A stretch of DNA of 64,000 nucleotides from Patescibacteria group bacterium (GTDB taxonomy: Bacteria; Patescibacteriota; Microgenomatia; UBA8517), in the NCBI GenBank assembly GCA_035291665.1, contig DATDRP010000003.1:84549-148548 (forward strand). Reading direction: 5' to 3'. Under the pieces are notes generated by a model. That model had not been told where the DNA came from. It did no database searches and worked only from the letters and a program-made list of their open reading frames with translations. Both the position numbers and the translations under genes were made by a program. Below, one piece after another: positions 2,640-62,091 of this stretch (position 1 is its first letter; each line of letters starts with the position of its first letter).

Positions 2640-4076
2640 TCAATTCAACAACCTCTGGAGTTTATATAGATCTTTTATTGTTTTTTCCGAAAATATATTT
2701 TTATAACCCAGCCGCTTCGCCTCCTTCTCCCTTTTCTCCTCAAAAGATACAGTTTTTACATCTCCCAACAAACTTACTTCTCCGAAAAAAATACTATGCT
2801 CGCCAAAAGTTTTATTATAGTTCGAAGAAAGAATCGATGCACATACTGCAAGATCGATTGACGGATCGTTTTTGGCTGTAATACCACCGGCGATATTAAC
2901 ATAAACATCCGATTCATAAAGACGAACTCCAAGTCTTTTGCTAAGAACAGCAAGAAGAAGCTCAAGTTTTTTTGAGTCAATTCCTTGCGCAACACGTCTT
3001 GGTATTGCCATCTTTGTGGGAACAACAAGAGACTGTATTTCTATAAAAATCGGACGGGTTCCGTTAACAATTGCACTTATTACTTTCCCCGGAACTGATT
3101 TTTTGACATCGCTTAAGAATATCTTTTCAGGATCGCTCAATCCGATTAAGCCTTTGTCCTCCATGACAAAAATCCCCACTTCGTCTGTAGCTCCGAAGCG
3201 GTTTTTGACTGCCCGGACCATACGAACGGATAACGTTTTGTCGCCCTCAAACCAAAGAACAGTATCAACCAGATGCATTAAAACTGAAGGGCCTGCAACA
3301 CTACCTTGCTTAGTAACATGGCCAACTATGAAGATCGGAATTCCGGTGGACTTGGCAAACTTAATAAGTCGATACGCACATTCCCTCACCTGTCCTACCG
3401 ATCCCGCCATTCCCGACAGATCTGATGTTTGCATTGTCTGGATCGAGTCAATAATTATCCCTTGCAATTGCAAGGACTGTCCTTTTACGTTGTATATCGT
3501 TTCAATTATTTCATCTATATCTGTATCTTCAAGAAGCTGAATATTGTCGTTTTTTACACCCAATCTACTTGCTCTTATAGCAATTTGGCTAACCGATTCC
3601 TCACCGCTGACATAGATGACGGCAGATTGCTTGCTATCTACAGCAGATAGCTTTCTTTCACTTTCTGAGTTTCCTATTAATGCAGTCTTTTTGCTTTGGG
3701 CCATCTGCAATTTTGCAGCAGACTGTGGACTATTTGCTGTAAGCTGGTTTGCAACTTGCAGTAATAGCGTTGATTTTCCAATGCCGGGTTCTCCGGCAAT
3801 AAGTATTACTTGTCCGTTGACAATTCCCCCACCCAATACCCTATCCAGTTCAGGAATTTCAGTTAATATCCTTTCCGTTGACTTTTTCGGTACATCGGAA
3901 AGGCTTGTTAATTCTGCAATTCTCTCACTACTACCTTTTCTCTTTGCACTTTTCTCTGTTGAAACTATTGTTTCAACAGCACTATTCCACTCCCCGCATT
4001 CCGGACACTTCCCAAACCAACGATAGGATTCGTAAGAACATTGTTGACAGACATATATTGAACTTGATTTGGCCAT
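2640..4076 (-). CDS. radA: DNA repair protein RadA/Sms (zinc ribbon + RecA-like ATPase + Lon-like C-domain); extra ~35-aa insert after Walker A
   Basis: CQQCSYESYRWFGKCPECGEWNS zinc finger; GEPGIGKST Walker A; KNRFG motif; Lon-like C-terminus. Confidence 0.9.
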   Translation of the reverse strand: MAKSSSIYVCQQCSYESYRWFGKCPECGEWNSAVETIVSTEKSAKRKGSSERIAELTSLSDVPKKSTERILTEIPELDRVLGGGIVNGQVILIAGEPGIGKSTLLLQVANQLTANSPQSAAKLQMAQSKKTALIGNSESERKLSAVDSKQSAVIYVSGEESVSQIAIRASRLGVKNDNIQLLEDTDIDEIIETIYNVKGQSLQLQGIIIDSIQTMQTSDLSGMAGSVGQVRECAYRLIKFAKSTGIPIFIVGHVTKQGSVAGPSVLMHLVDTVLWFEGDKTLSVRMVRAVKNRFGATDEVGIFVMEDKGLIGLSDPEKIFLSDVKKSVPGKVISAIVNGTRPIFIEIQSLVVPTKMAIPRRVAQGIDSKKLELLLAVLSKRLGVRLYESDVYVNIAGGITAKNDPSIDLAVCASILSSNYNKTFGEHSIFFGEVSLLGDVKTVSFEEKREKEAKRLGYKNIFSEKTIKDLYKLQRLLN

Positions 4077-4092: not shown

Positions 4093-4227
4093 TAGTGCAG
4101 TCCCGCACTTTCGCCCCTTCGACGCAAACACGCAATATTTGGGAGAAGGTAAGAATAGTGCTGGAACCAGCGCGGGCTCTCATATGAGCACTGCTGGCAT
4201 ATAAACTTTGAACTTGATCTGGCCATG
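4093..4227 (-). other. Upstream mimic ORF: divergent, synonymously recoded copy of radA codons 1-21 (MARSSSKFICQQCSYESPRWF) that reads through element A and stops 17 nt before the genuine radA ATG
   Basis: Reverse-complement translation from ATG (4224-4226) gives MARSSSKFICQQCSYESPRWFQHYSYLLPNIACLRRRGESAGLH*; radA itself begins MAKSSSIYVCQQCSYESYRWF; first 19 nt after the ATG are identical, then codons differ synonymously (CAA CAA TGT TCT TAC GAA vs CAG CAG TGC TCA TAT GAG). Confidence 0.6.
4098..4170. ncRNA. Copy A of a conserved ~75-nt structured element (core CCCCTTCGACGCAAACACGYARTATTTGGGAGAAGGYAAGAAYAGTGC), 22 nt upstream of the radA ATG; strand of action undetermined
   Basis: Near-identical cores at 4098-4170, 18847-18917 and 61652-61722; enclosing stems; compensatory change CCTTC/GAAGG (A,B) vs CCATC/GATGG (C). 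Confidence 0.55.
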
Positions 4228-5515: not shown

Positions 5516-5902
5516 CTAAAAATCAACATCGGGTTCACAGGGAACCATTGAAGCCAGTGCTTTCCAAAAAGTGGTTGATAGTCTTGATTTTGACTTTATC
5601 TGGGCACTTGGAAATATTCTTAAAGATACGTCTCCTCCTTCATATTTTATTTCTCCGGGATCACGCATTTGCGTACAATTAACTTCAGGATTATTCTTCA
5701 AAACACATGACGCACAAATGTCTCTTCTGAAATCTCTGGCCAATATGAAGTTGAATACATTCCGGCCATTAATTCCAGATAATACTATTTCGACACTATC
5801 CCTTTCAGGATCAGTTTGTTCAAGTCTGAAAGGATATGCGCTGCAAATTTTGATGTTTCTGATTTGATGGATTTTCTTAAACCTACCTAATCGTTCTGAC
5901 AT
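5516..5902 (-). CDS. Hypothetical protein with Cys cluster (CASCVLKNNPEVNC)
   Basis: ORF only. Confidence 0.3.
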   Translation of the reverse strand: MSERLGRFKKIHQIRNIKICSAYPFRLEQTDPERDSVEIVLSGINGRNVFNFILARDFRRDICASCVLKNNPEVNCTQMRDPGEIKYEGGDVSLRIFPSAQIKSKSRLSTTFWKALASMVPCEPDVDF

Positions 5903-8669: not shown

Positions 8670-8790
8670 AGAAAAATGTCTTATTGACTGATTCGGTTAA
8701 GGTTAGCTTAACTCCTTACGGAGCTTCCACATCCTTCCGAACAACCTGGTATTCTTCCAGGAGTCTATAATGAACCCTAATCTTGGAGGG

Positions 8791-8823
<33 letters not shown>

Positions 8824-8954
8824 CTTAGGAATATAGCTACCCGGCTTTGCGGCTGACGCCACAACCGGCACACCAGAGATTCCTCCAGCCTGGTCCTCTC
8901 GTACTGAGGCCAGCTCTCCTCAAGGTTCTACGATTCCACCGGATAGAGTCCGAC

Positions 8955-9342
8955 ATATAGTATGTCAATACTTCGCATGTTTTTATTTCCGAACGATTTT
9001 TCGGAACTCACGATCGCTCGTGAGATCAGACTATATCTTGTACGTTCAGTTTAAATGAACGTACTCTGACGTATAGTCGTTGAGGATTCTACGTTCAGTT
9101 TAAATGAACGTAGCCTTTCCTGCTGATTGTCCGCACCTGTTGCTTTTTTACCCTGAACGACCAATATAAGTCGAACGGGTAGCACAGGATACAACGGAGT
9201 TCCCAGCAAATAGTCAAATTTATACTCGACTGGTCGAGTCCTATAATGATAACAGTTCTCTTTACTGATTGTTCAAATCAGAAGGTTCAAAAACGTGTTA
9301 TAGGAAGACAGCTCATGTCATTCCGATATGTTATCGAAATCA
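8955..9342 (-). mobile_element. ~390-nt ORF-less insertion at the 23S L2593-equivalent site (GACAGU|UCGG); candidate group I intron
   Basis: Flanking exon sequences align to E. coli 2585-2600 with ~390 extra nt between; 5' exon ends in U and the insert ends in G; contains modular hairpins (ACGTTCAGTTTAAATGAACGT twice). Confidence 0.45.
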
Positions 9343-9862
9343 ACTGTCTTACGACGTTCTGAACCCAGCTCACGTACCGCTTTAATGGGCGAACAGACCA
9401 ACCCTTGGCACCTTCTTCAGCGCCAGGATGCGATGAGCCGACATCGAGGTAGCGATCCGCGCCGTCGCTATGGACGCTCGGGCGCGACTACTCTGTTATC
9501 CCCGGGGTAGCTTTTATCCGTTAAGCTCCGTGCCTACCATGAGGCAATCGGAGGATCACTAAAACCTGCTTTCGCACTAGTTCGAGCCGTCGCTCTCACT
9601 ATCAAGCTGGCTTCTGCTTTTGCACATTGAAGTACGATGTCCATCCGTACTAAGCCAACCTTTGTGCCCTTGCGTTACTCTTTGGCAAGGTACCGCCCCA
9701 GTAAAACTGCCCACCTGACACTTTTCCTTCCGCCGTATCCAGGCGGAATAGGTAAGCCTCACATTTTCAAAAGAGTGGTATTACACTGTTCCCCGCAAAA
9801 TAAATCTGCGGGGTCCCACCTATTCTACACAATTCAAAAATATGAAAAGCAATGTCAAGCTG

Positions 9863-9893
<31 letters not shown>

Positions 9894-10025
9894 GTGGAAT
9901 TAGGCCGCGTCTTCACAGCCACCGCAATTTCGCCGAGTAGAGGCTCGAGACAGTTATTAACTCGTGACGCCGTTCATGCAGGTCGGAACTTACCCGACAA
10001 GGGGCTTCGCTCAAAACCTTATGAA

Positions 10026-10705
10026 AATCATCGTTGAGTTTTGGACTATATCTTCTCCGATTTGATCGGAGTTCGACGTATAGTCTCTGAGGATTCTAAA
10101 ACAGACTGGTTTCTTTTTTTTCTTGTATTCATTGTCTCGATAATATTGATAATTTTATTTATTCCATTTTTTGTTAAATGAGTTTTATTTTTCATTAACA
10201 AAAGTATTTTAGAAAATTTACTGAAATCATCTTTTTTAGAAGTTTTCAACTTATTTTCCTCAAAAAAAGGAATAATTATATCAAAAAGTTCCTTCTGAGA
10301 CTTCACACAATATCGAAAAAGATCTTCTCTGTGATTATCGTGTCTTCTGTTGACCGAAATTCTACCACATTTAAAAAATTTCATTACCGTAAATAATACG
10401 TTCTTACTTTTTTCTCCTTGCGATAAAACAAACTCGGGCATAATCTGATAACCCAGAGATGTAGTTGGATTCTTATGTAGGGTTACTGTAAAACAACCCT
10501 CTCCGTCTACAAATCCAACAATCCAGCCAATAAATTTTAGTCTTTCCTGCTGATTATCTTTACTGAATGCTTTTTCACTTGGTATCATCTACAGTATGAT
10601 GTTACCTTAGTAGCTTCAGATTAACAAGATTTTCCAGCATATAGTCGAATTTTACTACGGCAGTTTTGTATTGCCCTTACCGTAGAACAGTTATAGTTAC
10701 TGCTG
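10026..10705 (-). mobile_element. Group I intron at the 23S L1917-equivalent site carrying a LAGLIDADG homing endonuclease ORF
   Basis: Exon junction ...CUAUAACUGUUCUA | intron | AAGGUUUUGAGCGAAGCCCCUUGUCGGG corresponds to E. coli CCUA|AGGUAGCGAAAUUCCUUGUCGGG; ORF inside on the same strand. Confidence 0.7.
10046..10588 (-). CDS. LAGLIDADG-family homing endonuclease (single-motif type)
   Basis: IGWIVGFVDGEGCF matches the LAGLIDADG motif; located inside the rRNA intron. Confidence 0.85.
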   Translation of the reverse strand: MIPSEKAFSKDNQQERLKFIGWIVGFVDGEGCFTVTLHKNPTTSLGYQIMPEFVLSQGEKSKNVLFTVMKFFKCGRISVNRRHDNHREDLFRYCVKSQKELFDIIIPFFEENKLKTSKKDDFSKFSKILLLMKNKTHLTKNGINKIINIIETMNTRKKRNQSVLESSETIRRTPIKSEKI

Positions 10706-11200
10706 CCGTTTACCGGAGCTTTGCTTCACCCCATAAGATATCGCTTGCGCGATACCAAACAGGGATCCGTTTAACTTACCGGCACTGGGCAGGCGTCAGC
10801 CCGTATACTTCGCTTTTCAGCTTTGCACGGACCTGTGTTTTTGATAAACAGTCGGTTAATAAACTTTCGCTGCAACCCCGATTAAATCGGGGCAACCCAT
10901 CTCCCTAAGTTACGGGTAGTTTTTTTGCCGAATTCCTTAAGCCTCTTTCTCTCGCTCGCCTTACTATACTCTAGTAACCCACCTGTGTTGGTTTTGGTAC
11001 GGCTTACCTTGAATCTCACTGCGAATCTTTTCTCGTAGACAGAAATGTATGGAATAGTCCAAGTAAACTTAAACTCTGCATAACTCATCGATTAATCGTT
11101 TCAGCGGATTTCCCAACTGATACTATCTATAAGCTTGCACCCCACTTCACGAAGGGGCTCCAATTTTCCTATCCAGTCAATCCCCAGTTACTCATACGCT

Positions 11201-11340
11201 GCGCGAGAATTTTTAATTTACAATTTAAAATTTATATTGAATTTCTAATGACTTAATGTACTTAATTAAAAAATCGGGTCAATGAAAATTGAATAAAAAT
11301 TAAAAACTACATAACTAAAAATTCTTGTGCAACGTACAAG
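11201..11340. repeat. AT-rich repeat family copy 2, inside the 23S (E. coli ~1500 region)
   Basis: Aligned to copies 1 and 3; terminal hairpin CTTGTGCAACGTACAAG. Confidence 0.8.
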
Positions 11341-11707
11341 TTTGGCGATTCAAGACAAATACAGGAATTTTAACCTGTCATCCATCGACTACCCCCGCCC
11401 CTTTTTTGACAATAGCTTACGGAAATTTCATCTTTGGAAGGCGAAACGCCTCAAATTGTGTTGAGCCGTTTTCGGCTTCCGGGGTACGAAAATCCATTAA
11501 ACATTATCGAAAAAGGGGCGGGGCTTGCCTTAGGTGCCGACTAACCCGTCGAGGACGAACCTCGCGACGGAATCCTTGGGTATTTGGCGGACCAGATTCT
11601 CACTGGTCTAGTGCGCTACTCATACCGGCATTCTCACTCCCATTCGCTCCACCCAACTTTACAGTTGAACTTCACAGCAAATGGAACGCTCCCCTACCAC
11701 ACTCGCT

Positions 11708-11872
11708 CGCAGTTCGAGAAAATTCAAATGATAAATATCAAATGACAAATCAATCACAAATAACAAAACTTTAAAAGAGAAAATAATTTAAATTCTTTTG
11801 TCCTCTTTTTAATTTTGAGTTTGAATTGAATTTTGTGATTTGAGTTTTGAATTTCCTTGTACTGCGAACAAG
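11708..11872. repeat. Hairpin intervening-sequence family copy a, at 23S helix 45 (GCAGUACAAGG...CGAACUGCG arms)
   Basis: ~165-nt long inverted repeat inserted where E. coli has helix 45 (GCGGCAGCGACGC...); near-identical copy at 12499-12663. Confidence 0.75.
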
Positions 11873-11936
11873 CATCTCTGGCTTCGGTATTATCTTTAAT
11901 CCTCGATTAATTTTCGGCGCCTACTTCCATCGACCA

Positions 11937-11993
<57 letters not shown>

Positions 11994-12498
11994 TTATGGA
12001 AATAAACTTCCTTTGAAACTTAAGATAAATTTAGAGACCTTAGCCGAAAGTCTGGGTTGTTTCCCTTTACCCGCATCAGCTTAGCCCGATGCGAGTGTCT
12101 AGCGTGATAATGTACACCGTTATTCGGAGTTTGGTTGAGTGAACTTGGTTGCCCTCGTCCACCCATTCAGTAGCTCTACCATCGGTAACACCTTACACGC
12201 CACGGTCCCTATAGACCTTTCGGGGAGAACCAGCTATCTCCAGGTTCGTTTGGCATATTACCCCTATCCACAAGTCATCCCAAGTCATTGCAACGACAAC
12301 GGGTTCGGGCCTCCTCCCGACTTTCGTCGGGATTCACCCTGCTCATGGCTAGATCACCTGGTTTCGGGTCTTATCTCACATTCAAAATCGCGCTATTAAC
12401 ACTTGGTTTCCCTACGCCTCCCCCCGCAAAGCGGGGTTAGACAAGAATATAAGATAAACTCGCCGGTTCATTCTTCAATAGGCACGATATCACTCGCA

Positions 12499-12663
12499 CG
12501 CAGTTCGAGAAAATTCAAATGATAAATATCAAATGACAAATCAATCACAAATAACAAAACTTTAAAAGAGAAAATAATTTAAATTCTTTTGTCCTCTTTG
12601 TAATTTTGAGTTTGAATTGAATTTTGTGATTTGAGTTTTGAATTTCCTTGTACTACGTACAAG
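12499..12663. repeat. Hairpin intervening-sequence family copy b, at 23S helix 25
   Basis: Inserted after GAACCUGAAAC...CUUGUACGUAGUACAAGG, the helix-25 position; ~95% identical to copy a. Confidence 0.75.
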
Positions 12664-12728
12664 CTCTATCGGTTTGTCCGCAAACAGTTTCAGGTTCTAT
12701 TTCACTGGGCGTCCCGCCCTTCTTTTCG

Positions 12729-12760
<32 letters not shown>

Positions 12761-12952
12761 TTCTGCTTATATTTAGCCTTGGAAGATGGTTCTCCCAGAT
12801 TCCCACGAAGATGTCGATCGTGGTACTTAGGAAATCCCTAGAGTCATTTTTCATTTCGTATACAAGACTATCACTTTCTATGGTCGGCAATTCCATGCCG
12901 TTCTACTATGAAAAATGATCCCACATTGGGCTCCTGCAACCCCCTGCACTCT

Positions 12953-13090
12953 GCGCGAGAATTTCTAATTTACAATTTAAAATTTCTAATTAATTTCTAA
13001 TGACTTAATGTACTTAATAAAAAATCGGGTCAATGAAAATTGAATAAAAATTAAAAACTACATAACTAAAAATTCTTGTGCAAAGCACAA
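12953..13090. repeat. AT-rich repeat family copy 3, inside 23S domain I (after GUAGCGGCGAGCGAA)
   Basis: Aligned to copies 1 and 2. Confidence 0.8.
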
Positions 13091-13101
13091 GGTTTAGGCT
13101 T

Positions 13102-13132
<31 letters not shown>

Positions 13133-13810
13133 ATTTCCCCCGCTGAGCGGGGGTTGTTTTCTTTTCCTTCGGGTACTTAGATGTTTCAGTTTCCCGAGTC
13201 TCCTCCGAAAGAGCTATGTGCTTCGCACAAGGTGGCCTACAGCTATTTGACTACAGACTACAGGAAAAACTGTGACTGTAGACTGTTGACTGTAAGCAAA
13301 CTTATGCGAAGCGCTTTTACTCTTTGGTCCTCCGTTATGAGACGGAGTGGGTTTCCCCATTCGGACACCGCCGGGTCACAGGATCGTGGCTCCTATCCGA
13401 CGATTATCGCAGCCTTGCGCGTCCTTCTTAGGTAAGCAAAACCAAGGCATCCACTGTTCGCGTTAGTAAAGACATTTACCTCGTGTATAAACACGAGGAT
13501 TTTGGCCTTTCTCCTTAAATTTTTAAAGAGCAAATTAACTTGTTAATTTGCGATGTATCCGCCAACAAACGCCCCTTAAGTCGTGTTCGAACAGAACTAA
13601 AAGACTTAAGGTAAGTTGCGGCGGAAAAGAGCACTGTTTCAAAAAAGAAACAGCTTCTATCTCTCGCAAATCTGTTAATGTTCATCTCTTTAGTATCTGA
13701 AAGATGGTGACTCGCGGTTTAAAATATTATCCAAACCGCCAATCACCATTTCTCAAATGTCAAAGTCTTCCTTATACTCTTCTACTCTCACGCTCTTACA
13801 CTCTAAATTA

Positions 13811-15653: not shown

Positions 15654-17771
15654 ATGCTTAAAACATTTGTTTTGAAAGTTCCAAGAGAGAATGTCGAAAC
15701 CCCCGAAGCAACACAAACTTTTTTATCAGCGCTTACCACGCTTAATCCGACAAGTACTCTTGAAAAATTACTTATAAAAAACCAAAAAGCTCTTGCTCTC
15801 GAAATTGTGCTTCAAAACCAGCAAATTACATTCAGGGTGGTTTGTGATTCTGAATTTGAACATCTGGTTACCACACAAATCCAGTCAAACTATCCGCTTT
15901 GTGTCATTCAGAATGCTGAAAATGAAATTTCCTTTGAAGACCTGACTCTGACAAAGGTTAACTTGAGGTTTGGTAATTTTTACCCGATTCAAACTTATGC
16001 TTCTTTCCGGGATTTGGATCCAATGTCGTCATTTTTATCGCTTCTTTCAAAGGCAACACCGAATGACGTCGTAATCATTCAATACGCTCTTGAGGCAGCT
16101 GGATCTTCCTGGCAGGCGAAAGGTAAAAACTTTGCTCTTTCAGGAGCCAAAAAAGCTGATGGGTCATTTGGTCCCAGACCCGACCAAAATGTCGTTAACG
16201 AAAAGATATCATTCCAAGGATTCAAAGTATCCATTCGGATAGCATCTAATTCGAAAACAACTCAAAAAGAACTTGCATCCGTGTATGATATTTTTAACCG
16301 CCCCGACGGCAATAGTTTTCGATCTTCATCCGTCATCAGGCTTTTTTTCAAAAAAGAAATGGCAAAATTCAAGAACCGGCTTTGCAGTGATTCTCAAATC
16401 CTTAACACTCCGGAGTTGGCAACGCTATGGCACTTGCCCGGTGAAAAAATAAAAGCCCCCTTAATTTCCTGGGGTTCAACAGTTTTATCAGAACCACCGG
16501 AAAATCTTCCGGTTGCAAAAATCATGTCCGATGAAGAAAAATCCCATGTCAACTTTTTTGCAAAAACACAGTTTAAGAATGAAGAGAGCATTTTCGGAAT
16601 CAAAGACAAGGATAGGCTTCGTCATGTCTGGACTGTCGGAAAAACCGGAACCGGAAAATCAACAATGATTGCCAACATGGCAATCGATGACATAAAAAAA
16701 GGGCGTGGAGTTGCGGTTATTGATCCGCACGGAGATCTTTGTGATGACATACTGGATTACATTCCCAGCTCCCGTATAAATGACACAATTTATTTCAATC
16801 CGGCTGACCGCGAATTTCCAATCGCACTCAATCCTCTTGAAGTAACAAATAAAGAAGAGGCGGAATTGGTTGTATCCGGACTGATGAGTATCTTTACCCG
16901 AGTATGGGCTAATGTTTGGTCTGCAAGAATGGAATATATTCTCCGTAACTCATTCATGACTTTGGCAGAAATCCCCGACTCGACGTTGGAGGACGTACTC
17001 CACTTGTTGGCGAATCAGACTTTCCGAAACAGAGTTCTTTCAAAAGTAAAAGACGACGCTATCGTAAAATTCTGGAAAGACGAGTTCGATCAAATGCCGG
17101 AAACATTACAAAAAGAAGCGATTGCACCAATCCAAAATAAAGTCGGACAATTTGTAACATCGCCTTTAATGAGAAGAATCCTTTCAAAACCAAAGTCCGC
17201 CATTTCGATTGACGACATCATGAATAACGGAAAAATATTTTTGGCCAATCTTTCCCAAGGCCGTCTCGGTGAAGACAACTCGGCGCTTCTGGGTGCAACA
17301 CTTATCACAAAAATTCAAGTTTCCGCAATGAGACGTGTGGACATTCCGAAAGATGACCGCCGGCCGTTTTACTTGTACGTTGATGAGTTTCAGAACTTCG
17401 CCACCGATTCATTCATCCGAATTCTATCAGAAGCAAGAAAATACGGATTGGCTCTGACTTTGGCTAATCAATATATGGCGCAAATTCCTCCCAACATACA
17501 AAAAGCAATTCTCGGAAACGCGGGAACTCTGGTTGCTTTCACAATCGGCGCAGAAGATGCCCAAATTGTACATCGGGAATTTGCCGAGGTGTTTTCGCAA
17601 AACGATTTGGTTAATTTGAAAAACTATCAAATTGCAGTGAAACTAATGGTCGATGCCCATTCAACCAGGCCCTTCTTTGCCTATACATTGCCTCTTCCCG
17701 CGCAGAGTAACCAAAACCGCCCCAAAGTGATTGCAGTTTCCCGGGAAAGGTGGGGAAAAAAATCGACGTAA
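15654..17771 (+). CDS. P-loop NTPase of the HerA/FtsK/VirB4 clade (DUF87-like), 705 aa, with ~300-aa N-terminal domain of unknown function
   Basis: VGKTGTGKST Walker A; AVIDPHGD (HerA/VirB4-like); LYVDEFQNF Walker B; no SD upstream. Confidence 0.6.
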   Translation: MLKTFVLKVPRENVETPEATQTFLSALTTLNPTSTLEKLLIKNQKALALEIVLQNQQITFRVVCDSEFEHLVTTQIQSNYPLCVIQNAENEISFEDLTLTKVNLRFGNFYPIQTYASFRDLDPMSSFLSLLSKATPNDVVIIQYALEAAGSSWQAKGKNFALSGAKKADGSFGPRPDQNVVNEKISFQGFKVSIRIASNSKTTQKELASVYDIFNRPDGNSFRSSSVIRLFFKKEMAKFKNRLCSDSQILNTPELATLWHLPGEKIKAPLISWGSTVLSEPPENLPVAKIMSDEEKSHVNFFAKTQFKNEESIFGIKDKDRLRHVWTVGKTGTGKSTMIANMAIDDIKKGRGVAVIDPHGDLCDDILDYIPSSRINDTIYFNPADREFPIALNPLEVTNKEEAELVVSGLMSIFTRVWANVWSARMEYILRNSFMTLAEIPDSTLEDVLHLLANQTFRNRVLSKVKDDAIVKFWKDEFDQMPETLQKEAIAPIQNKVGQFVTSPLMRRILSKPKSAISIDDIMNNGKIFLANLSQGRLGEDNSALLGATLITKIQVSAMRRVDIPKDDRRPFYLYVDEFQNFATDSFIRILSEARKYGLALTLANQYMAQIPPNIQKAILGNAGTLVAFTIGAEDAQIVHREFAEVFSQNDLVNLKNYQIAVKLMVDAHSTRPFFAYTLPLPAQSNQNRPKVIAVSRERWGKKST

Positions 17772-18046: not shown

Positions 18047-18400
18047 GTGAGAATTACAAAACTTGATGATTTGGTTATATATCAGGAGTCAATCTTACTT
18101 ACTAAGGAAGTATTTACACTTTGTAAATGTCCCAAGCTCAAGACTGAATATAGCCTCCAAGATCAAATAAAACGAGCGTGCGTTTCTGTGTCTGCCAATA
18201 TTGCTGAAGGCTACGGTAGACGTACCAAGGCCGACTTTTCTCAGTTCTTATCAATCTCGCTAGGCTCATGCAATGAAGCGATAGCCTTACTGGACGTCAT
18301 TAAATTAAATTTTCCCACACTGGAAACTACAGAGCTAAAAGGAAAATATCAGATATTAAGTAAAAGGATTTATTCATTCCGCAGTTATCAAATTAAATAA
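18047..18400 (+). CDS. Four-helix-bundle protein of the type normally encoded inside 23S rRNA intervening sequences (TIGR02436-like)
   Basis: Matches this family's typical motifs: ...ACVSVSANIAEGYGRRTKADFSQFLSISLGSCNEAIALL...; 117 aa. Confidence 0.7.
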   Translation: MRITKLDDLVIYQESILLTKEVFTLCKCPKLKTEYSLQDQIKRACVSVSANIAEGYGRRTKADFSQFLSISLGSCNEAIALLDVIKLNFPTLETTELKGKYQILSKRIYSFRSYQIK

Positions 18401-18846: not shown

Positions 18847-18917
18847 TGCATTGCGACAGTCCCGCACTTTTGCCCCTTCGACGCAAACAGGTAGTATTTG
18901 GGAGAAGGCAAGAACAG
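18847..18917. ncRNA. Copy B of the structured ~75-nt element (no downstream minus-strand gene; carries a 41-codon ORF MFFNLYSSPGTVLAFSQILPVCVEGAKVRDCRNAKIQRVLK)
   Basis: Core alignment with copies A and C; outer stem GTCCCGCACT / AGTGCCGGGAGAC. Confidence 0.5.
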
Positions 18918-20553
18918 TGCCGGGAGACGAGTAAAGATTGAAGAACATTTTCGCGATTAGTGAAAGGTAGCCAGTTGACCGCCTTGAGCGGATTTCAACT
19001 TGCTGCCTTCCACTGGTCACGAGGACCAGTGTCTTTTGTTTAAGACGAGGGGAAGCAGGAAGTAAGCAGTAAGAAGTAAGGAATAAGCAATAGCGCATAT
19101 CACCTACAACCTACCGCTTACGACTTACAACCCATTTGTTCTTTAACAACTTTGCTGTTTACCACGTTCAATTTATTTGAGCGTGGATATAATTAAGGAA
19201 AAAGGAACCCTATTATATTTTTTCGATCGCGAGGACTACGGTTCTCGCGTCACGGAAGTAGTATAACGGGGTAAGAAAAGGGAATCCGCAATATCTTAAA
19301 TAATAAGGTATGTGCGGGATACCGGGGTTAGATAGTTTTTTAAAAAGACTTCTAACAGGACATGGGGTTAAATGATATATATAGATAGTCTCCTTTTTTC
19401 AAATGTCCCCTATTAATGGAGGGAACAGAGACCGTAATTATTTGCGGTTTCTTTTCCCTTCATTTTTTTGGGGCTAAAGTCCTTGGAGTTTTTTTGTTTT
19501 GGTTTAAGGCTTCGCCTTAGGCCACGTTTTTTGAATGCTGAAACATGCGATATAGTCGATTGAAGACTACGGTCTTTGTCGATACAAAAATATCAAAATG
19601 TTTTACCAGCTGTAATTCTAAATCCTTAAAAATTTAGAAGTTGGATAACCTTCAAAAAACAAAAACGAAAACAGAACCAATATGAAATTTATATTGGCGA
19701 AGTCCCGTACCGAATTTATTCTGGTGCGTGGAAAAACTTCAAAAGATTGCATCGCAAAGGATTATTATCCTGAGCGAAGACAAGTTTGACTTGTTGCAGT
19801 CGAAGGACTTCCTTTATTTCGGTTAGCCTGCTTTGCGAGCACTTCTCCTTTAAAAAGAGATTTATCAACTGAAACCAAAGGCACCCAGGATGGCGATAAA
19901 ATTCCTACTTGTAGAAGTTCGCACCCGCTTCGCGACACGCATTTCCGAGTTCTTTTCTTCCGTAAACCCGAGAAGAATCGAAATCTTATGCGCGATAAGA
20001 AGAAAAAGTAAATCGAGCAATCGATTAAAAGGCCTTCTTTTTATGACAAGGAAAACTGCGGGGGTATAAGACCTATCAAAATCTTATATTCAATCCGTAC
20101 CAGTCATTTGGGATTGTGACCCAACAAGGCAACAACTCAGGGATCAATCGCAACCAAGCTCAGCTTGGTAATCCTGTTTTGTATCAAAACCACTACGGTT
20201 AGATACGAAGAGATCTCGCATTTATACATGTTAAATGTGTAGAAATCGGGAAAAGCGAAAATCCAGCTCAGCTGGAGTACTTATCTTAAGTACGCGGAAA
20301 CTGGACAAGCGTTTTTTGTTTTTGCTTTGAAGAGACTTCTTCTTTTCTTCTTTATAAACAGAGAGTTTCCGGTGCACCCAACAAAGGTGTCATCCGCAAG
20401 CTACGAAGCTTGATTATAGAAACTGATATGTAGGATATCGGAGAGAAAGAAAAGAATTGGAGAAGTAGGAACGGAAGACGGCATTCAGGAGATGCGGAAA
20501 AATTTTATCAATCAGGTGTAGTTTTACCTGAATTCAGAAAAAAGGAGAATGTT

Positions 20554-27181: not shown

Positions 27182-28822
<1,641 letters not shown>

Positions 28823-29112
28823 GTGACGGTTCTAATTAATAAAAATTAGATCCATCTAATCACTCCCAGTCATATTTTAATTTTCGAATCAGTTGTTAAA
28901 GTGCGAGATCTTAACAAACAAAAGAAGCCGCCCAGACGGCGGCTTTGTAGCCTTAAAGATTAATCTTCGTCTGGTCAACCGCTTCTCATCTTTTCCTTTC
29001 ACAAACCAACAAATTGATTTGTAATGTGTATTATATCAAATTTTGCAAATTGTTCAACGAATCGGTTTGTGGGATTGGAAATGAACCGGGGGTATGTTAA
29101 CATTGCGCCGCT

Positions 29113-60769: not shown

Positions 60770-61630
60770 TTATCCTGATATCTTCTTCAGAGTTTTCGGT
60801 ATTTGATCCGACAAGTCGTCAGAATTGTAATTGACGCCAACCATTTTATGAAGTTCATCTGCAGCAGCTTTTATCAGATAACTTGCGGCGGCGGCGGCCA
60901 AAAAAGGATCGTTTTTCGCCAAAAGCCCAACCGTAAGACCTGCCAAAATATCTCCGGTTCCTCCCTTAGTCAAACCCGGGTTTCCGCCTGTAACAGCTAC
61001 TGTTTCCGATGGAGATGCAACATTTGTTTCCGGTCCCTTGGCAACTATAATACAATTATATTTCCTAGCCTCTGCCTGAATAAGTTTTACGTCTTGAGTT
61101 TTTAGTTTAAAAAGCATTTCCATTTCTTTTCTGTTCGGCGTTATTATCGCCCTTGGCGGTATCCACTTTGCATCCATCGTCTGCAAACTCCCCGCATCGA
61201 TTACCCACTTTTTGGACTTGAACTTGGTTAGTAGTCTTTCTGTTATTTCTCTAGTTTTTTTTCCCTCTCTATCATTTGAAATTTGGAATTTGTCATTTGG
61301 AATTTGAGATTCACTAGTGAACCGCATAAGTCCCGGTCCCATAAGAACCGCGTCTGACTTTTTAATATATGCTTCAACATCGTTCCAAGGAACCCAAATG
61401 AAAGACATTAATTCAGATTTAATATTATTAGCAATGTCGCCTACGCTGGGCTCCGGCGAACTAAAAAATACCATATCAACAATTCTTGACGCCGCTTTAA
61501 CAGCTAAAAGAGGTGCGCCATGGAAAAGCGACGACCCGCCGATAATAGTAACTTGCCCGTTTTGCTCTCCTAACGAGTTGTTTTTCGGTTTAAACAGTTT
61601 GTGTAACTCGTTTTTATCAAAGGTTTTCAT
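60770..61630 (-). CDS. nnr: ADP-dependent NAD(P)H-hydrate dehydratase (YjeF C-terminal domain / Nnr2); start moved to MKTFDKNE
   Basis: GGSSLFHGAPLLAVKAASRIVDMV; IDAGSL; GGNPGLTKGGTGDILAGL. Confidence 0.75.
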   Translation of the reverse strand: MKTFDKNELHKLFKPKNNSLGEQNGQVTIIGGSSLFHGAPLLAVKAASRIVDMVFFSSPEPSVGDIANNIKSELMSFIWVPWNDVEAYIKKSDAVLMGPGLMRFTSESQIPNDKFQISNDREGKKTREITERLLTKFKSKKWVIDAGSLQTMDAKWIPPRAIITPNRKEMEMLFKLKTQDVKLIQAEARKYNCIIVAKGPETNVASPSETVAVTGGNPGLTKGGTGDILAGLTVGLLAKNDPFLAAAAASYLIKAAADELHKMVGVNYNSDDLSDQIPKTLKKISG

Positions 61631-61647
61631 ATTATCTTGAAAATGGA

Positions 61648-61791
61648 TTAGCCCCGAACAATCACCCCATCGACGCAAACACGTAGTATTTGGGAGATGG
61701 CAAGATCTGTGCGGGGCCCGTTATCTTCCCCATTCGATACCGGTGATGGTTGATATAACTTTTTCAAATCATCGAGATCAAAAATCTTCAT
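61648..61791 (-). other. Upstream mimic ORF: 47 codons MKIFDLDDLKKLYQPSPVSNGEDNGPRTDLAISQILRVCVDGVIVRG; its first ~26 residues are a diverged copy of the Nnr N-terminus (MKTFDKNELHKLFKPKNNSLGEQNGQ); reads through element C and stops 17 nt before the nnr ATG
   Basis: Codon-by-codon reverse-complement translation from ATG 61789-61791; 14/26 identities with the downstream gene's N-terminus. Confidence 0.55.
61652..61722. ncRNA. Copy C of the structured ~75-nt element, 22 nt upstream of the nnr ATG
   Basis: Core ...CCCCATCGACGCAAACACGTAGTATTTGGGAGATGGCAAGATCTGTGCGGGGC; outer stem GCCCCG/CGGGGC; CCATC/GATGG covaries with CCTTC/GAAGG of copies A and B. Confidence 0.55.
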
Positions 61792-61931
61792 ACTAATATT
61801 ATAATTGTTATAGCACACTCAAAACAAAATGTCGTATTTCTTTGAGTTTGATATATAGGAATTCTATGTTTGTTAAACAAAATGTCAGAAGTGACAACTT
61901 GTTATAATATAACTATGTAATATTATTTACC

Positions 61932-62091
61932 ATGACATCCTCCACTTTACTTATGTCCGTGGTCTCCCCTGAGGGAGGATGGTATACCGTGCCTGCCGGC
62001 AGGCAGGTCAGAGTTCAATTCTCTCCGAGTCAGAGACTCTCTGAGTCGGAGACCTCCCCGCCCAGGGCGGGGTTTCCTTGAAATTGTTATG
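61932..62091 (+). promoter_or_regulatory. TIR promoter-cassette element T5; ends in the ATG of the 62089 gene (GGGGTTTCCTTGAAATTGTT-ATG)
   Basis: ATGACATCCTCC...GAGGGAGGATGGTAT-[CCTGCCGGCAGG]-AGTTCAATTCTCT-[CCGAGTCAGAGACTCTCTGAGTCGG]-[CCCCGCCCAGGGCGGGG]-TTTCCTTGAAATTGTTATG. Confidence 0.6.

Follow-up and report, generated by a model that had tools for sequence, protein, structure and literature searches.

The DNA analysed here, called the window throughout, is a 64,000-nucleotide (nt) stretch of contig DATDRP010000003.1 from a Patescibacteria group bacterium. It contains nnr, the gene for NAD(P)HX dehydratase, preceded by a short open reading frame (ORF) that runs through one copy of a palindromic DNA element, here called E (Table 1). 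The reverse strand of 61648-61791 translates to MKIFDLDDLKKLYQPSPVSNGEDNGPRTDLAISQILRVCVDGVIVRG followed by a stop, beginning at the ATG 61791-61789 and ending at the TAA 61650-61648, with a gap of 17 nt to the nnr ATG at 61630. This ORF is composite: its first 25 residues resemble the N-terminus of Nnr, and residues 26-47 are read from element copy C, whose 5' base is directly abutted by the 3' end (...AACGGG) of the Nnr-like part. In what follows, X1 denotes a diverged, orphan copy of a gene end at the 5' base of E, and X2 denotes the corresponding end of the intact gene past the 3' side of E. An initial annotation had proposed that the first 26 residues of the ORF resemble Nnr with 14 identities, that copy C encodes the remainder up to a stop just before the real ATG, and that this repeats a situation seen at radA; the coordinates were confirmed, the radA case is also real, and the similarity to Nnr withstood controls, with the 14 identities falling within 25 residues.

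The Nnr N-terminus and residues 1-25 of the upstream ORF align position for position, and BLASTP of the upstream peptide against Nnr places residue 1 on residue 1 (E=6e-07, single comparison). A six-frame local alignment of the upstream and downstream flanks at nnr gave a score of 66 (z ~8-9), against maxima of 39 in a run of 40 nucleotide shuffles and 51 in a second run. The Nnr start at 61630 is backed by 119 homologues that start with M(K/R)xF.... Judged by these alignments, the N-terminal similarity of the upstream ORF is real homology, and the ORF is, on balance, probably an orphaned gene start, the leftover of nnr codons 1-25 beside E. Part of the spacer between E and nnr (CTAATCCATTTT) is kept at the nnr loci of two further lineages. 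The promoter-like site at 61888-61861, if used, would place X1, E and nnr on one transcript. At radA, MARSSSKFICQQCSYESPRWF upstream of E corresponds to MAKSSSIYVCQQCSYESYRWF at the true RadA start (flank test z ~18); 10 codons of X1 differ from RadA only synonymously, and X1 and X2 are nearly identical over their first 22 nt.

Table 1. Features of the window, and duplicated ends beside E at further loci of the family
Feature	Position in window, or locus	Strand	Basis or remark
Upstream ORF, 47 codons, X1 plus read-through of E	61648..61791	(-)	NCBI: hypothetical protein HLE48953.1
nnr, NAD(P)HX dehydratase, 286 aa; codons 1-25 = X2 (working start)	60770..61630	(-)	PF01256; 100% match to HLE48952.1
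X1(nnr), orphan copy of nnr codons 1-25 (MKIFDLDDLKKLYQPSPVSNGEDNG), own ATG	61717..61791	(-)	similarity to Nnr
Element copy C, CCCC...GGGGC hairpin	61651..61716	(-)	covariance-model match 61648-61721, 78.8 bits, E 4e-22
Tail/spacer (TAATCCATTTTCAAGATAAT) containing the upstream-ORF stop TAA	61631..61650	(-)	sequence
Promoter-like site CTGACA-16-TAGAAT, upstream of X1(nnr)	61861..61888	(-)	consensus match only
X1(radA), orphan copy of radA start (MARSSSKFICQQCSYESPRW)	4167..4226	(-)	16/21 residues identical to RadA
Element copy A, then radA (2640-4076, minus strand)	4095..4166	(-)	covariance model, 84 bits
Element copy B, non-coding region	18856..18929	(-)	covariance model, 72.3 bits
Copy D, diverged fourth copy, head-to-head with B, 273 nt apart	19203..19275	(+)	covariance model, 28.9 bits, E 2e-06
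Co-oriented gene, N-terminus duplicated: transketolase (tkt)	L006
Co-oriented gene, N-terminus duplicated: GT4 glycosyltransferase	L054		IMRVALVHDYIKEFG vs IMKIAIVHDYLKEYG, z 15
Co-oriented gene, N-terminus duplicated	L073
Co-oriented gene, N-terminus duplicated: valS	L003		MDPQYDH vs MDTTYNH; short case, found by eye
Co-oriented gene, N-terminus duplicated: polA 5'-exonuclease	L031		(M)NKLVLID vs MGKLILID; short case, found by eye
Antisense gene, C-terminus and stop duplicated: HTH_17 protein	L007/L032		WLLGMQSKDE-stop vs WLLGMQSKED-stop
Antisense gene, C-terminus and stop duplicated: secA	L013		CYPKFG-stop vs CYPKYG-stop
Antisense gene, C-terminus and stop duplicated: YchF-like protein	L015		VVEFKIGT-stop vs VIEFRIGN-stop
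tRNA: E between positions 53 and 54 of a tRNA 3'-half fragment	L033, L037		just downstream of intact tRNA-Ile or tRNA-Met
CTTGA subfamily (promoter)			5'-flank CTTGA again 20-85 nt downstream as -35 box CTTGACA of next promoter

The window holds four copies of E. Copies A, B and C, which exist as the initial annotation had named them, match the core pattern on the minus strand, which places B at ~18860-18925, and the diverged copy D was found by the covariance model. The core, CTCCCAAATACTACGTGTTTGCGTCG, is conserved in the window copies and in every locus retrieved with it; scans with this core recovered 18 loci from one genome per species and 56 loci from JGI metagenomes. Named records carrying E belong to Woesebacteria and Shapirobacteria, and the remaining ones bear the labels Patescibacteria, uncultured Gammaproteobacteria or Oligoflexia. 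An alignment of 52 distinct copies describes a hairpin of 70-75 nt with an outer stem (CCCC.../...GGGG), a covarying middle stem, a conserved internal loop (CTTAC / GRGC), a CTTG/CAAG stem and an apical part reading CUCC-CAAAUAC-UAC-GUGUUUG-CGUCG. The ends read CCCC(A/G)... and ...GGGG(CARG / TCTGCG), and at the left junction ...RA is preferred before CCCC, with A at position -1 in 28 of 50 copies. Scored on a structure that we specified, 93.7% of cells are paired and 16 of 24 pairs show two-sided changes (112 cells), a score reached by 0 of 500 shuffles, and slid controls were 28-53% paired. The exchange of CCTTC/GAAGG in A and B for CCATC/GATGG in C, read earlier as compensatory, is a genuine case and one of many in this alignment. 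Copies at L078, L083 and L084, found via protein homologues, have a different apical stem with pairing kept, and the RNA fold of copy C reaches -32.7 kcal/mol (z -3.5). About 70% of copies point the same way as the flanking genes, by a tally from the ORF table. The covariance models of Rfam 15 gave no match to E at gathering thresholds or at E up to 10 (window; around B, C and D), an exact-core scan of viral contigs and blastn against phage and plasmid collections found no E, and nothing relevant was found in the literature on palindromic or miniature elements of the candidate phyla radiation (CPR). A preprint on Patescibacteria tRNA introns deals with group I introns at position 35/36 and not with E. 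E is an undescribed structured hairpin family of Microgenomates (CPR) without an Rfam match, conserved as a structure and not as a unit of coding.

The arrangement at nnr recurs throughout this family: a diverged gene-end copy stands at the 5' base of E, the intact gene with its own end stands past the 3' side, and only E and a spacer of 12-30 nt lie between them. Orphan gene ends of this kind were found in >15 genes, and the duplicated piece may be an N-terminus, an antisense C-terminus with its stop, part of a tRNA or a promoter box (Table 1). L033 (640-1010) has an intact tRNA-Ile and, after it, three 3'-half fragments of tRNA-Ile in tandem, each with its own acceptor-strand allele; in the third, a different insert of 27 nt occupies the T-loop position at which E is found. 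Recurrence of CTTGA(CA) was seen in 16 of ~18 CTTGA-type copies versus 6 of 31 other copies, and the repeat is visibly longer in some (19 nt in L018). Comparison of flank against flank was significant at radA and nnr in the window and at L006, L054, L073, L067, L032, L051 and L065, and scores in a junction-anchored nucleotide test exceeded the 95th percentile set by internal controls at 10 of 43 distinct loci, where ~2 are expected. Identical direct repeats were found at 0 of the 43 distinct loci. Taken over these loci, the recurrence shows the X1-E-X2 layout to be the signature of the E family at protein-gene ends, tRNA genes and promoters, independent of gene orientation. Short repeats in metagenome data invite the suspicion of chance similarity or an assembly chimera, yet shuffle z-scores of 8-18 and the occurrence in >15 genes from independent assemblies (NCBI, JGI, ENA, Logan) reduce the probability of either to almost nothing.

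The upstream ORF had also been taken for a possible leader, in which a translated ORF, through its peptide or its translation, would control nnr together with an RNA hairpin. The ORF is open, starts with ATG downstream of the promoter-like site and ends close to the nnr ATG; at least five co-oriented upstream ORFs end within ~25 nt of the real start, and stop codons are depleted on the forward strand of E (0.58 per copy vs 2.7 in shuffles and 2.06 on the reverse strand). This depletion may reflect tolerance of read-through and is largely carried by the invariant core. The segment SQIL(R/P)VCV(E/D)G, which had suggested a conserved element peptide, can indeed be read in a single frame of A, B and C, but the RadA-like upstream ORF crosses copy A in another frame (the LLPNI frame, ...FQHYSYLLPNIACLRRRGESAGLH and a stop). 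The ORFs at nnr, L054, L073 and L003 use the SQIL frame, and that at L006 uses the APKYY frame; with each of the three frames of E thus in use among the upstream ORFs, the conservation of the SQIL peptide is no more than conservation of the nucleotides. The ORF at L073 terminates within E, 25 of 50 copies contain a stop in some forward frame, and copies vary by indels and bulges with pairing retained, the very pattern (frames disrupted, RNA pairing kept) that the initial annotation had named as telling against its leader. Antisense C-termini, tRNA fragments and promoter -35 boxes share the layout, so no leader peptide is possible there; relatives have empty sites or a half-decayed E; and enzymes as unrelated as RadA, Nnr, transketolase, GT4 and ValRS would have no common use for a second version of their N-termini. 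Neither a translated leader nor N-terminal mimicry involving a conserved element peptide is therefore supported, and regulation by such a leader is largely refuted and very improbable. The resemblance thus reflects a gene end, duplicated or alternative, that was produced in the DNA, rather than mimicry.

The divergence between orphan and working ends bears on how the two arose. Pooled over nine X1/X2 pairs, differences at synonymous sites (pS) were 0.91 and at replacement sites (pN) 0.22, a ratio of 0.24 compared with at least 0.5 expected for an X1 drifting neutrally since duplication, although the orphans were detected by similarity, which biases pN downward and would let decayed orphans escape. 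Mean identity of the nnr X1 to the 119 Nnr homologues is 0.576, that of the homologues among themselves 0.571 and that of X2 0.554, while X1 and X2 share 0.56. The nnr X1 outscores X2 against 74 of the 119 homologues and keeps the family consensus LKKLY and GEDNG where X2 departs from it (LHKLF, GEQNG); similarly, the radA X1 has the consensus ESPRWF versus ESYRWF in X2. In SecA, 5 of 6 codons differ between the orphan and working ends, all synonymously, and the stop codon is a different one. The orphan tRNA-Ile fragment has a compensated T-stem, and its acceptor strand CGCGCCC does not match the 5' acceptor strand GGGCGAT of the intact tRNA-Ile at the same locus. Saturated synonymous sites together with conserved replacement sites make X1 and X2 look like two alleles each under selection rather than a gene and its decaying duplicate. 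Some orphans are visibly decaying or lost, as in L084 (Cys to Tyr), L078 (12-nt deletion) and L076 (complete loss).

The main rival reading is an ordinary miniature transposon with a long, variable target-site duplication, mobilized by a transposase in trans that makes staggered cuts of 5 to ~90 bp, so that X1 and X2 were identical at birth. Its appeal lies in the hairpin and terminal-inverted-repeat anatomy with several copies per genome, in direct repeats of variable length (including the 5-bp CTTGA in most type-I copies), in the left-junction preference for A at -1, in the near identity of the first 22 nt at radA and in the precedent of long repeats made by IS1634 and IS1549 (PMC2266710). 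It is contradicted by the lack of identical repeats at every one of the 43 loci, by a pN/pS well under the neutral expectation, by an nnr X1 that is nearer the family consensus than X2, by C-terminal orphans that keep residues and stops with nearly all codons synonymously changed, by tRNA insertions without duplication at the junction, and by the lack of a transposase among the ORFs examined near E. Such a transposon accounts for the CTTGA repeats and the variable lengths, not for the allele-like divergence, and we regard it as unlikely; the corollary that only insertions duplicating a whole gene end survive is just as doubtful.

Among relatives, E comes and goes. The DUF5654 - nnr - Fic - ligase neighbourhood is conserved, and in L079 and L080 the spacers of 69 and 34 nt contain no E. 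L076 has only the 3' half of E and the same spacer (ACTAATCCATTTT) upstream of nnr, without X1, and L078 has a partly decayed X1 (MKKFDKSELKRLFIPGEVTKNC, with the 12-nt deletion), E and X2. In L083 and L084, E sits in radA after the same Trp codon; the radA X1 is intact in L083, and in L084 it has a GTG start and the Cys-to-Tyr change. The related genomes L031, L054 and L057 carry E upstream of, between or downstream of the same gene pair. E-bearing Nnr lineages form no clade and are scattered in a star-like tree. Empty, relic and shifted sites imply that E is gained, lost and left to decay, and that nnr does not depend on it. Against an assembly artefact stand L075, whose sequence is identical to that of the window, and the repeated appearance of many loci in different samples. 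The stretch separating the DUF5654 gene from the nnr region holds a G+C-rich palindrome cluster (window 61935-62080: CCCCGCCCTGGGCGGGG; the perfect 31-nt palindrome TCTCCGAGTCAGAGACTCTCTGAGTCGGAGA; CTGCCTGCCGGCAGGCAG), which is not in the short spacers of the syntenic L079 and L080. These palindromes resemble other small inserted elements, and one hairpin is like the second hairpin of L050.

It is also conceivable that X1 is sometimes the working end, either through reversible excision of E and X2 or through skipping at the RNA or translation level (ribosome hopping between matching codons), with both ends under selection. X1 keeps its start codon, frame and consensus residues, and its stop codon in antisense cases; the final codons of the two ends are identical or are read by one tRNA (GGG/GGG in nnr, TGG/TGG in radA of three lineages, CAC/CAC in valS, GAC/GAT in polA); and the distribution of E among relatives is patchy. 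Set against this, the protein collection contains, for this species, no E-less allele with X1, the 90% Nnr cluster having two members, both of the X2 type, and the sole strain variant, L075, is identical upstream. X1 is decaying in L084 and L078 and lost in L076, a hop of ~160-180 nt would go far past known bypasses, and translation cannot account for the antisense and tRNA cases. Overall, we judge a still-working X1 improbable.

Our preferred reading, towards which we lean with modest confidence, is that a mobile palindromic element inserted itself, or replaced a gene end, at the DNA level, and that X1 and X2 are independently evolved functional alleles. E would then sit within the 5' end of nnr, having entered by insertion or recombination at the preferred left junction, ...RA before CCCC. 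The first 25 codons of nnr, their ATG and the upstream promoter region would be stranded 5' of E as X1, and a second complete start (X2: spacer, ATG and codons 1-25) would lie 3' of E in frame with the rest of the gene, leaving the gene intact. Such an event would resemble the entry of integrative elements that supply a new end to the gene they land in (tRNA-targeting islands, SXT in prfC), with the 'island' reduced here to a hairpin, a 12-30-nt spacer and a replacement end; X2 would most likely have been acquired with E from another lineage, or X1 would periodically be the working end. Translation of X1 through E would be a by-product that at most helps ribosomes to open the hairpin and terminate beside the nnr start; ending 17 nt before the nnr ATG, it may simply keep the hairpin from blocking initiation.

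A bolder extension is that E, spacer and replacement end together form a minimal, gene-specific cassette for swapping gene ends, with the hairpin defining the recombination joint, a proposal we hold only tentatively. Such a cassette might, though this too is doubtful, place a foreign protein terminus, tRNA 3' half or promoter box beside the native one with function kept. Equally speculative is the suggestion that recurrent gain, loss or reversible excision would preserve both ends in Microgenomates; the cassette would then represent a new class of mobile or recombinational element that lacks an enzyme gene of its own.

Several observations, besides the detection bias on pN, weigh against insertion or gene-end replacement. 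Pfam searches of 20 window ORFs and 8 ORFs around L007 revealed no transposase, integrase or reverse transcriptase, clustering of the ORFs within 4 kb of all E copies gave no recurrent mobile-element gene, and neither the window nor the retrieved loci yielded an autonomous element with these arms. The insert between X1 and X2 is only ~90 nt, to our knowledge far below the size of any integrative element. Each genome has its own version of the inner, apical part of E, the window copies A, B and C being closer to each other than to E at the same genes in other lineages, and vertical inheritance with concerted evolution fits this better than recent import. Both tRNA cases are plain insertions of E in an already displaced fragment, without an adjoining duplicate. 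The X2 ends of E-bearing lineages do not cluster (13/25 identities between the window and L076), whereas a cassette carrying its own end predicts clustering. The folded strand is ambiguous as well: an apical U.G is invariant on the forward strand, and elsewhere A.C (42) exceeds G.U (10); as A.C equals G.U on the opposite strand, the indications of the folding strand are contradictory.

Other parts of the window and of the retrieved loci hold further structured or mobile features. Copy D has a TATAAT-like box at ~19189 and is followed by a second hairpin with a T-run at ~19285-19345; a 153-nt stretch of window 19203-19350 (+) folds at -51.7 kcal/mol (z -5.9) without an Rfam match, and this predicted fold may represent a small RNA gene related to the E family. 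The B/D non-coding region is adjoined by a PF05635 23S-rRNA-intervening-sequence protein (Avd-like four-helix bundle, 18047-18400 (+)) and by a TrwB/VirD4-type coupling protein at 15654-17771 (+); the region around copies B and D may be a mobile-element neighbourhood. At 18930-19030 (-), cactggtcctcgtgaccagtggaaggcagcaagttgaaatccgctcaaggcggtcaactgg contains a GGAAGGCAGCA motif reminiscent of domain IV of signal recognition particle RNA, with no Rfam match at E up to 10. L010 (1061-1384) has two inverted E copies, 3' ends facing, around a 176-nt segment that has a long terminal helix (AAGATGGCCTGG...CCAAGCCATCTT) and resembles a gene for a small structured RNA. At L034 670-815 and L001 ~5640-5720, E-like hairpins are paired tail to tail (E, TCTGCG, inverted E') and flanked by the direct repeat TCAAG/CTTGA, each pair a composite palindrome of ~150 nt like a classical miniature transposon. 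Elsewhere in the window, the 23S rRNA gene (8672-13477 (-)) spans 4.8 kb with several large insertions and a group I intron at 9007-9284 (-) (71.7 bits), and the 16S gene (27182-28823) lies 14 kb from it, so the rRNA genes are unlinked.

For annotation, the consequence is that HLE48953.1, a 47-aa 'hypothetical protein', and similar small ORFs are by-products. Publicly deposited Nnr and RadA calls from further Microgenomates, P0090, P0100, P0142 and P0165, run upstream into E (for example ...GLIHF..., ...LLAPEGYDLASQ..., ...ERLCGTAL...), and these N-terminal extensions are spurious. More broadly, the E family is deeply conserved in CPR and regularly stands beside spare gene ends that look like functional alleles from another lineage, an unusual association. 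Should a dedicated mechanism lie behind it, E would be a very small mobile unit that does its host no harm because it brings or makes a substitute gene end, and would give a direct view of the exchange of essential-gene pieces in ultra-small, probably naturally competent bacteria. As natural 'fossil alleles', the orphan ends could serve to date these events.

Among known systems, two candidates were rejected on their defining motifs: no RYYYAAC ... GTTRRRY boxes of an integron attC site lie at the base of the E hairpin, and the X1/X2 differences are not confined to adenine (TGC/TGT, CAG/CAA, AGC/TCC) as in the template and variable repeats of a diversity-generating retroelement. Programmed bypass of the T4 gene 60 type has matching take-off and landing codons around a hairpin-containing gap of ~50 nt; matching codons exist at nnr, radA and valS, but the gap would be 160-180 nt here, and the antisense and tRNA cases leave no room for translation. 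Like Rickettsia palindromic elements (RPEs), repetitive extragenic palindromes (REPs), bacterial interspersed mosaic elements (BIMEs) and Correia elements, E is a short multi-copy hairpin of a small genome that is sometimes read through in ORFs. RPEs are in-frame insertions retained in the protein, and REP and Correia elements are intergenic with duplications of 0-2 bp; we know of no report of any of these elements, BIMEs included, beside a spare gene-end copy, and, unlike them, E has an apical 26 nt that is nearly invariant across genera. In being multi-copy, having inverted-repeat arms, varying in presence at orthologous sites and standing at different sites in related genomes, E fits a miniature palindromic element of the miniature inverted-repeat transposable element or REP-like kind.

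IS200/IS605 and REP-associated tyrosine transposase (REP/RAYT) systems move single-strand hairpins with HUH enzymes, make no target duplication and need two ends and a Y1 transposase. E shares with them an imperfect palindrome with conserved bulges, an orientation that in most copies follows the flanking genes and, in type-I copies, the fixed motif CTTGA directly left of the element (cf. TTGAT of ISDra2); it differs in that no Y1 transposase was found near it. The IS1634 family normally produces repeats of 5-6 bp, and IS1634 and IS1549 give 8-514 bp (PMC2266710). Likewise, E has the 5-bp CTTGA in one subfamily and repeats of 20-85 bp elsewhere, but its repeats are never identical and differ like orthologous alleles, and neither a DDE transposase nor a full-length element was seen. 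Islands and prophages that target tRNA genes, and SXT in the 5' end of prfC, restore the gene end that they interrupt. E differs from such integrative elements in having no integrase or cargo, in that each copy would need a gene-specific end, and in lying within the fragment rather than between copies in the tRNA cases. Common to both are the orphan end on one side and, across from it, a working gene that uses a diverged, element-borne copy; the junctions have a short core of identical sequence, and 3' halves of tRNAs are among the targets, as in the tandem fragments of L033.

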